DNA of 64,000 bases from Alphaproteobacteria bacterium (GTDB lineage: Bacteria > Pseudomonadota > Alphaproteobacteria > WRAU01 > Hepatincolaceae), in the NCBI GenBank assembly GCA_031274895.1, contig JAISPM010000021.1:141-64140 (forward strand), in the 5' to 3' direction. The position numbers were made by a program, and so were the translations under genes. Shown here piece by piece: positions 7,546 to 7,799 of the stretch. The first letter of the stretch is position 1; each line of letters begins with the position of its first letter. The notes below the pieces were generated by a model. The model did not search any database. It saw only the letters and a program-made list of their open reading frames with translations, and was not told the origin of the DNA.

Positions 7546-7662
7546 ATTAAAAACAACAAGATAGGATTACTCTTCAAATTCAATGAGCTAACCCAGTATG
7601 TGGATATATCTATTTTTGCTCATAATTCATTTGAAGAGTAATCCTATCTTGTTGTTTTTAAT
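7546..7662. repeat. Type-C nested palindrome C3 (33/34-bp perfect arms, 51-nt core in - orientation)
   Basis: Arms 7546-7578 and 7630-7662 are exact reverse complements. The core is 7579-7629. Confidence 0.9.
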
Positions 7663-7686
7663 TACTTAATTTTTCCTTCATCACAT

Positions 7687-7799
7687 GTAGTTAAGGGTCT
7701 TCATATACTGTTTTAACTGAATTATGAGCATAAATAGATGTATCTATTAAATGGATTAGCTCATTGAAGTTAAAACAGTATATGAAGACCCTTAACTAC
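7687..7799. repeat. Type-C nested palindrome C4 (31-bp perfect arms, 51-nt core in + orientation)
   Basis: Arms 7687-7717 and 7769-7799 are exact reverse complements. The core 7718-7768 is tgaattatgagcataaatagatgtatctattaaatggattagctcattgaa. The right arm overlaps the stop codon and last codons of the SH3 gene. Confidence 0.9.

Follow-up and report, generated by a model that had tools for sequence, protein, structure and literature searches.

Stop-codon-abutting hairpin repeats with conserved tips and private, homogenised arms in a Hepatincolaceae genome

How does a genome come to carry long, perfect hairpins whose tips are alike in many copies and whose stems are not? The question is raised by two nested palindromes, C3 and C4, which lie side by side at positions 7546-7799 of a 64,000-nucleotide stretch of DNA from an uncultured alphaproteobacterium (the window: contig JAISPM010000021.1 of assembly GCA_031274895.1, positions 141 to 64,140). 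In this work, we have compared these elements with their relatives in the same genome (G000, the source genome, a 1.5-Mb draft in 137 contigs, 94.6% complete) and in a sister species (G001, of which 1.41 Mb was analysed). Our results show that C3 and C4 belong to a genus-specific superfamily of hairpin repeats that abut stop codons and have conserved tips and private, homogenised arms. The arms, rather than the core on which the initial annotation of this DNA had concentrated, are the unusual part, a point that had gone unnoticed there. We propose that the elements are a dispersed repeat that spreads without a transposase, with arms that would be made and kept complementary by fold-back template switching and with gene conversion between neighbouring copies, a reading to which we give about even chances. 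Below, labels such as C14, C57 and C117 are contigs of G000 (written contig:position), and D3, D4 and D6 are contigs of G001.

The two elements and the gene that C4 adjoins are as follows.

7546-7579: C3 left arm, 34 nt, perfect complement of 7629-7662
7580-7628, minus strand (TGAA-sense): C3 core, (T)GAATTATGAGC..GCTCATTGA(A), with inner stem ATGAGC/GCTCAT; 62.1 bits with covariance model R1
7629-7662: C3 right arm, 34 nt
7663-7686, plus strand: C3-C4 spacer, 24 nt, ttacttaatttttccttcatcacat, including the pyrimidine-rich box TTTTTCCTTCATCACA, which is 5' of C4 in the sense of the C4 core
7687-7718: C4 left arm, 32 nt, perfect complement of 7768-7799
7719-7767, plus strand (TGAA-sense): C4 core, antisense to the adjoining SH3 gene, the usual polarity; 69.6 bits with R1
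7768-7799: C4 right arm, 32 nt, of which 8 nt at its end lie inside the SH3 gene
7792-8313, minus strand: SH3-domain gene (Pfam SH3_4/SH3_3), with its stop codon within the C4 arm

In each element perfect arms enclose 49 nt. The arms of C3 and C4 are unrelated, and the cores are about 80% identical and antiparallel, the core TGAATTATGAGC...GCTCATTGAA lying on the minus strand in C3 and on the plus strand in C4. The initial annotation had described this arrangement correctly and its two core sequences match ours; the 33-nt arm and 51-nt core that it gave for C3 are the same object as our 34 and 49 nt. It was also right that the right arm of C4 supplies the end of the SH3 gene, the overlap of 8 nt comprising the TAA stop, the final Ser codon and 2 nt more. 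Folded as single strands, the two elements give rods of -36.5 to -37 kcal/mol whichever strand is taken, whereas shuffled sequences reach about -7 (z from -12.7 to -14.4; 0/200 shuffles equally good), and a perfect 32-nt inverted repeat cannot have arisen by chance.

A conserved core between private arms

A relaxed pattern found 52 copies with paired arms in G000. A strict one gave 43 matches there and a single match in G001, while 99 further genomes of Alphaproteobacteria gave none. The 52 copies served to build model R1, which had 76 matches in G000 (about 70 loci after removal of reverse-strand duplicates), five in G001, one in G002 and none in 28 others. Perfect inverted repeats with arms of at least 18 nt number 120 in G000, and their spacers are 24-130 nt long in nearly all cases and shorter than 12 nt in only nine. 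The 24-130-nt spacers fall into several core families, with more than 100 nested palindromes in G000 and about 86 in G001, some of these of different core families. When arms of at least 24 nt are demanded, 86 repeats of G000 have a spacer of 13-80 nt, and empty palindromes (spacer of at most 12 nt) are found once in G000 and never in a 327-kb sample of G001. No Rfam family reached its gathering score (generic long-hairpin microRNA models and WsnRNA46 matched far below), the literature search brought up no described family with private arms around a conserved core, and a pattern scan of viral contigs returned single matches only, roughly the number that we estimate for chance.

The conserved part of these hairpins is the tip. 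With the core oriented by TGAATTATGAC...GTCATTGAA, the copies have in common a 7-bp clamp (TTTWAAC/GTTWAAA), which is followed along the rod by the pairs T-A, G.A, A.G and A-T (a tandem G.A, present on the TGAA strand only), a TT bulge, an inner stem of 5-7 bp and a variable tip. On the 52-copy alignment, 83% of the cells of this rod are paired against 67% in shuffles, and the covariation score is 0.435, compared with 0.126 in shuffles (none of 500 reached it) and with about 0.07-0.13 after sliding of the 3' partners. The exchanges are visible pair by pair: columns 20-64 are A-U in 44 copies and G-C in 8, columns 22-62 are A-U in 35, G-C in 8 and C-G in 6, and columns 21-63 are C-G in 50 and G-C in 2, namely C3 and C4. 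The tandem G.A is swapped for G-C/C-G in 11-12 copies (the TGCA...TGCA variant), and the outer T-A and A-T pairs shift to C-G jointly with their partners. The core is a structured element with real covariation. It had been noticed in the initial annotation that the inner stem changes on both sides, from ATGACC/GGTCAT in the left pair of the window (C1 and C2) to ATGAGC/GCTCAT in C3 and C4; this paired swap is real, and so is covariation over the genomic copies. On its reverse strand the main subfamily has a 13-codon mini-ORF (MT.SYLW..LGMS), which was discarded because, by eye, ATG GCG TGA or ATG ACC TAA cuts it short in the other subfamilies. The ends of the core resemble a hammerhead or a kink-turn, which is a resemblance only.

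The arms follow other rules. Positions 1-7 are conserved (GTTWAAA); positions 8-24 carry only 0.05-0.47 bits and yet are 94-100% Watson-Crick paired, and pairing drops to background over positions 28-34. Arm length is 30.8 +/- 4.1 nt and is unrelated to the distance from core to stop codon (r 0.05). In all, 98.7% of the arm pairs are Watson-Crick, with 30 mismatches in 2398, while cores differ by 20-40% between copies. Arm similarity does not track core similarity (rank correlation 0.02, permutation p 0.27): cores that are 90-95% identical bear unrelated arms, and paralogous arms are no more similar than shuffled ones. Co-inheritance of arms with cores is therefore rejected, and so is the copying of arms from elsewhere in the genome, since no third copy was found beyond a reversed-sequence control. 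Because only positions 1-7 are conserved, and because arms lack similarity even around near-identical cores, the inherited unit is the core with its clamp.

This pattern bears on whether the elements are ordinary miniature inverted-repeat transposable elements (MITEs) of about 115 bp, whose terminal inverted repeats of about 31 bp arrived with each copy and then diverged to randomness while remaining paired. The uniform arm length would suit such an origin, as would the compensated divergence of orthologous arms described below and, at the locus C14-E2, the fact that both arms look inserted (by eye). It is difficult to reconcile with arms that are dissimilar even where cores are 90-95% identical, with the sharp fall in conservation at arm position 8, and with the arms of elements gained since the split from G001, which are equally unique. 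Furthermore, neither a flanking direct repeat nor any other target-site duplication was seen in the 12 nt outside 92 elements (by eye), and no parent insertion sequence or transposase was found. We regard this origin as very improbable.

What keeps the arms paired? The two species have 17 syntenic sites occupied in both, which is above chance expectation, and the copies that are clearly orthologous differ at 3-8 arm positions with every difference compensated. Examples are C57:12195 compared with D4:67661, a pair with 32 nt of identical core, and C63:13129 compared with D3:65688. Since arm mismatches are so rare and orthologous differences are compensated, though cores differ by 20-40%, the arms are thus actively kept complementary. 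Three reports (PMC8604942, PMC5941160, PMC7202029) describe a process with this outcome, polymerase template switching between inverted repeats, which homogenises arms and inverts spacers.

Gene ends, polarity and concerted evolution of neighbours

Nearly all elements adjoin a stop codon, with the outer edge of the arm mostly at -15 to +13 nt from it, and the same is true in G001. Among 730 syntenic intergenic regions of G000 and G001, elements occur in 22/52 convergent, 32/584 tandem and 1/94 divergent ones. Lying between the stop codon and an ordinary terminator, they should be co-transcribed in mRNA 3' ends, as judged from position. Of 50 family-A copies, 44 have their core antisense to the abutted gene, as do 7 of 8 family-C copies, and it is because each core is antisense to the gene that it abuts that pairs at convergent genes are antiparallel, in the order (-)(+), which 12 of the 13 adjacent pairs show. 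Beyond the hairpin as seen from the gene (5' in the core sense), 31 of 74 elements have a pyrimidine-rich box within 60 nt, against 3.5% of random 60-nt windows; its consensus is approximately TTCCTC..CACA, or purine-rich GTG.GGAGAGG in the sense of the gene, and it might belong to the repeat unit itself or act as a signal of the Rho or anti-Shine-Dalgarno kind.

Polarity relative to the abutted gene explains the antiparallel layout better than subtype pairing does. That each pair holds one core of each subtype, as the initial annotation had it, fails genome-wide, where most other pairs carry two cores of the same subtype (identity 0.90 in a pair on contig C100 and 0.92 in one on contig C14). 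Concerted evolution within pairs, which the initial annotation had also put forward, finds support: mean core identity is 0.76 in the 13 adjacent pairs and 0.59 among non-neighbours, genome-wide, and the G-C swap of the inner stem is private to C3 and C4. The four copies of the window, of which the other two flank the neighbouring DUF347 gene on its far side, add to this.

6051-6159, plus strand: C1 (left pair), arms 6051-6080 and 6130-6159; core in the sense of phoU, a polarity exception
6172-6286, minus strand: C2 (left pair), arms 6172-6204 and 6254-6286; core in the sense of the adjoining DUF347 gene, a polarity exception
6299-7465, minus strand: DUF347 membrane-protein gene, between the left and right hairpin pairs

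By hand count, the 13 nt past the inner stem are identical in C1 and C2 (13/13), agree at 11/13 in C3 and C4, and at 7/13 between pairs, while in the central 18 nt C2 agrees with C4 at 17/18, C1 with C3 at 9/18 and C1 with C2 at 6/18. The pair-specific 5' part of the core, the grouping of C2 with C4 in the centre and the looser grouping of C1 with C3 had all been reported before and are borne out by these counts. The block pattern, in which the 5' part and the stem are pair-specific and the centre is common to C2 and C4, is incongruent in the way expected of gene conversion, which the sequences may thus record. C3 and C4 show the canonical (-)(+) order, with C4 assigned to the SH3 gene; C3 has no adjoining stop codon and is located in the leader of the DUF347 gene. 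C1 and C2 are the sole reversed pair among the 13, and both break the polarity rule. They are among the 7 of 58 elements with the core in the unusual sense, which spacer inversion by template switching would produce; no before-and-after pair was seen.

The layout [C1 C2] gene [C3 C4] suggests at first sight that the two pairs are the ends of a hairpin-delimited cassette that imported the DUF347 gene, and the closest homologues of its product outside the genus do come from other phyla, at about 60% identity. This idea we consider barely credible, as it is contradicted by synteny: G001 has the order SH3, DUF347, (one extra ORF), phoU, pstB without any hairpin, and in G000 the elements stand at about 100 other gene ends, beside housekeeping genes. 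As to the gene itself (6299-7465), the sequences most similar to it beyond the genus belong to Bacillota, Patescibacteria and other phyla and are about 55-65% identical, which suggests an old horizontal transfer into the genus. The interval between DUF347 and phoU in G001 (L001 5227-5622) holds a 131-aa ORF and two ordinary terminators, and its counterpart in G000 (6035-6298) holds the C1/C2 pair and no ORF. A metagenome scan with the DUF347 protein found a closest relative at 60% and yielded no empty alleles, and an exact-protein look-up led to nothing but Logan contigs from one other sample, in which the sequence is the same.

The polarity and the covariation could also mean that the elements are functional RNA modules, in which selection on RNA pairing would keep the arms perfect. 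Such a module could be a protein-bound hairpin acting in cis in the 3' untranslated region (UTR), or a TGAA-sense RNA with a C/U-rich leader and a rod, which could work as a small RNA of the anti-Shine-Dalgarno kind or form a Rho-type barrier to antisense transcription into the gene. This would agree with the strong covariation of the core, with the switch from tandem G.A to G-C/C-G in 11-12 copies, with the fixed polarity to the gene (44:6), with the C/T-rich box 5' of the rod in 31 of 74 elements, and with the arm mismatches, of which 16 would allow a wobble pair on the TGAA-sense strand and 5 on the opposite one. On the other hand, no excess of promoters was found, within the main subfamily the G.T pairs of the core stems (20) do not clearly outnumber the A.C ones (14), it is hard to believe that a small, reduced genome keeps about 100 copies under selection over some 30 bp each, and a function leaves unexplained how new copies acquire new arms. 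As the primary explanation it seems to us rather unlikely; a function at the RNA level is possible as an added layer, compatible with template switching.

Other nested palindromes have some of these traits. A second core family (about 15 copies, 60-65 nt, ending GCATC(A/T)(G/T)GC..GC(A/G)TG(G/T)(C/T)TAA; for example C14:4768-5145, C117:1825-2195 and C54:967-1234) has private arms, the stop-codon position and the same polarity (7/8), and family A has a short version of 24-32 nt, GACTTATGCGC-loop-GCATGGA. A palindromic repeat of about 105 nt, with the interior GCTTTCTAT..CTCATGTATTA..ATACAC..ATAGAAAGC and private outer arms of 16-18 nt, is common in G000 and in G001 (for example D3:65688-65793 and D6:18325-18428), and its orthologous copies show only compensated arm changes. 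The window itself contains two more nested palindromes with different cores, at 13829-13931 and 58144-58250; the arms of the latter (CGTCATAC...) are a high-copy repeat with more than 15 identical genomic copies, unlike the private arms of family A.

A proposed origin for the arms

We propose that the core is copied by polymerase template switching into the short 3' untranslated sequence that follows a stop codon, with no dedicated transposase, and that the near-palindromic clamp provides the microhomology for the switch. The new strand would then fold back on the clamp and copy its own upstream 24 nt or so, which would create the second arm. Repeated fold-back switching would transfer mutations of one arm to its partner, so that arms would drift fast and stay paired, and inverted neighbouring cores would exchange sequence by gene conversion, as the G-C swap of C3 and C4 and the mosaic of the four copies in the window may illustrate. 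The transmitted unit would be the core of about 50 nt with its 7-bp clamp (TTTWAAC...GTTWAAA), in many cases accompanied on one side by a pyrimidine-rich box, and the arms of about 31 bp would be written locally. At one locus the local template may still be visible: an arm on contig C75 holds the conserved last codons of the gene (..AG-stop), and the far arm is their perfect complement. Across loci, the similarity of the gene-side arm to the 3' flank of the G001 orthologue is 0.344, against 0.297 for mismatched pairings (p 0.002) and 0.415 for element-free genes.

Several observations weigh against this proposal. The similarity just given is only weakly above the null. Where an arm covers at least the last 6 nt of a gene, the C-terminal residues differ from those of the ortholog in 8 of 9 cases (identity of the last five 0.11, against 0.59 in controls), and therefore the gene-side arm is usually not ancestral sequence. 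At C14-E2, the only locus with a good alignment (by eye) to G001, the two arms both have the look of added DNA and neither that of local sequence that was retained. The comparison of relatives gave no filled-versus-empty allele pair, so that the birth of an arm was not observed. Template switching alone predicts neither the 44:6 polarity nor the position near stop codons, and a draft that is 94.6% complete could lack an enzyme encoded in single copy. The arms also resemble the ordinary terminators of the genus in composition and in the order of their motifs (A-tract, GGAG/GGAA, ATAT, T-rich loop), which pre-existing hairpins or selection would explain as well.

The genes into which arms reach by at least 6 nt lie on contigs C5, C9, C28, C47, C61, C72, C92 and C109, and the last residues and the length of their proteins differ from those in G001. 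In all, the elements have rewritten the C-terminal residues of at least nine proteins.

A polar rule, in which the 5' arm in the TGAA sense is the template from which the 3' arm is copied, would accommodate the signs of a local origin together with the observations against an ancestral gene-side arm, on the strength of very few cases; C75 fits because it is a reversed element, with the gene on its 5' side. More speculatively, the elements would represent an enzyme-free class of selfish DNA, in which a clamp-bearing core spreads by template switching and, through self-primed fold-back, writes a ruler-like inverted copy of about 31 bp of the adjacent DNA, with fixed polarity towards the neighbouring gene. 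The product of such a spread would be an inverted and not a direct duplication. We hold this wider reading as a tentative one, with the chances rather against it.

The terminator-like look of the arms leads to another origin, in which a small mobile core with its clamp inserts into the loops of pre-existing terminator-type hairpins behind stop codons, the arms being old terminator stems. The 5' arm is purine-rich, A/T tracts lie on the outside and GGAATATC stands beside the loop, as in terminators; the ordinary terminators of the genus are likewise near stops (median 14 nt); and such insertion would account for unique arms, for the lack of a target duplication and for the lack of a third arm copy. 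The dimensions do not agree, since arms without the clamp are about 24 bp, of narrow length distribution (30.8 +/- 4.1 nt with it), and ordinary perfect stems here have 9-21 bp, mostly 9-13, and since empty palindromes with arms of at least 24 nt, the required targets, are essentially absent in both species. A T-run (at least 7 T in 10 nt at the 3' arm end) occurs at only 13 of 148 hairpin ends, and a terminator scan called no terminator-like site at C3 or C4. The elements themselves are therefore not intrinsic terminators, which would have a G+C-rich stem followed directly by a T-run, and separate ordinary terminators stand beside them.

The convergent loci also bear on loop insertion. On contigs C117, C14, C72 and C100 the order is stop, a first element (E1), an ordinary bidirectional terminator in the centre, a second element (E2) and stop, so that the ancestral terminator is still intact beside the elements. 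At the C117 and C14 loci, G001 has the central terminator only and no hairpin at the positions of E1 and E2; in G002 the C14 locus carries just an ordinary terminator of 17 bp, and neither G002 nor G003 was found to have a hairpin with long arms at these two loci. On grounds of parsimony, both elements are gains in the G000 lineage, placed between stop and terminator, and, as the relatives have the terminator without the long-armed hairpin, the loop of the ancestral terminator was not used for them. We consider loop insertion unlikely as the origin of the arms.

The palindromes also matter for assembly. An independent short-read assembly of the same sequence, Logan contig L091 (SRR14710915; 3340-3364), ends precisely where the C4 arm does, at its final base. 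The palindromes thus break short-read assemblies at the arm end, and they probably contribute to the fragmentation of the genome into 137 contigs.

Known systems compared

No known mobile-element family or enzyme explains the origin of the copies. No Y1/RAYT transposase (PF01797) was present in G000-G003, in a search that detected the family in G004 and in control genomes; no reverse transcriptase was found in the 94.6%-complete assembly of G000, nor any multicopy family of transposase-like ORFs; and the best match to the integron integrase (TIGR02249), at 76.7 bits against a cut-off of 265, is XerC/D-like.

In many respects the elements resemble the repetitive extragenic palindromes (REP, BIME, REPIN), which are also gene-less, present in tens to hundreds of copies behind genes or between convergent genes, often in inverted pairs, and co-transcribed in mRNA 3' ends (here as judged from position). 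In REP elements, however, the stem is the conserved repeat, whereas here the stem is private (positions 8-30 at 0.05-0.47 bits, with no similarity between copies) and only the tip is conserved, and no Y1/RAYT gene occurs in the genome or genus; membership of the REP/REPIN-RAYT system is rejected on both counts. With MITEs and other structured repeats (Correia/NEMIS, ERIC, RUP, BOX, Rickettsia RPE) they have in common that they are small, non-coding, hairpin-forming and expanded in one lineage. MITEs differ in having conserved terminal inverted repeats, a related insertion sequence and duplications of the target site. In the present elements conservation of the arms is confined to the 7 bp beside the core (the GTTWAAA clamp), and no related transposase was found, so that the elements are not placed among them.

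A foreign segment at the tip of a host hairpin is also what palindrome-targeting insertion sequences produce, as do IS1397, ISKpn1, IS621 and ISPpu9/10 in REP loops. These are of kilobase size, carry a transposase and enter an existing repeat family, whereas the insert here is 50 nt without a gene and ancestral hairpins remain alongside; we exclude them by this comparison only. Integron attC sites are likewise defined by structure, lie directly behind the stops of ORFs, have individual sequences and carry pairing ..AAC/GTT.. boxes. The boxes of attC mark the hairpin base, and the centre varies; those of the present elements adjoin a conserved centre, and it is the base that varies. Membership was rejected, there being no integron integrase and the flanking genes (phoU, pstB, SH3 and others) being housekeeping neighbours rather than cassette arrays.

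A parallel to the behaviour of the arms is quasipalindrome correction, or inverted-repeat template switching, in E. coli and yeast, in which arms are made identical and the spacer can flip (PMC7202029, PMC5941160, PMC8604942). It fits the compensated arm differences and the seven orientation exceptions: as expected of repeats homogenised in this way, orthologous differences lie in both arms, at 3-8 positions that are all compensated, in arms that are 98.7% Watson-Crick paired. It is described as a mutational process at single sites, and is not known to spread a dispersed repeat or to build 31-bp arms. If our proposal is true, template switching can shape about 100 gene ends in a 1.5-Mb genome. 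In the known bacterial palindromic repeats, the stem is the repeat and is moved by a transposase; here the relation is inverted, the tip being the repeat and the stem private, with no enzyme found. If the arms are written by fold-back copying, DNA could both spread and build long hairpins with the replication machinery alone.

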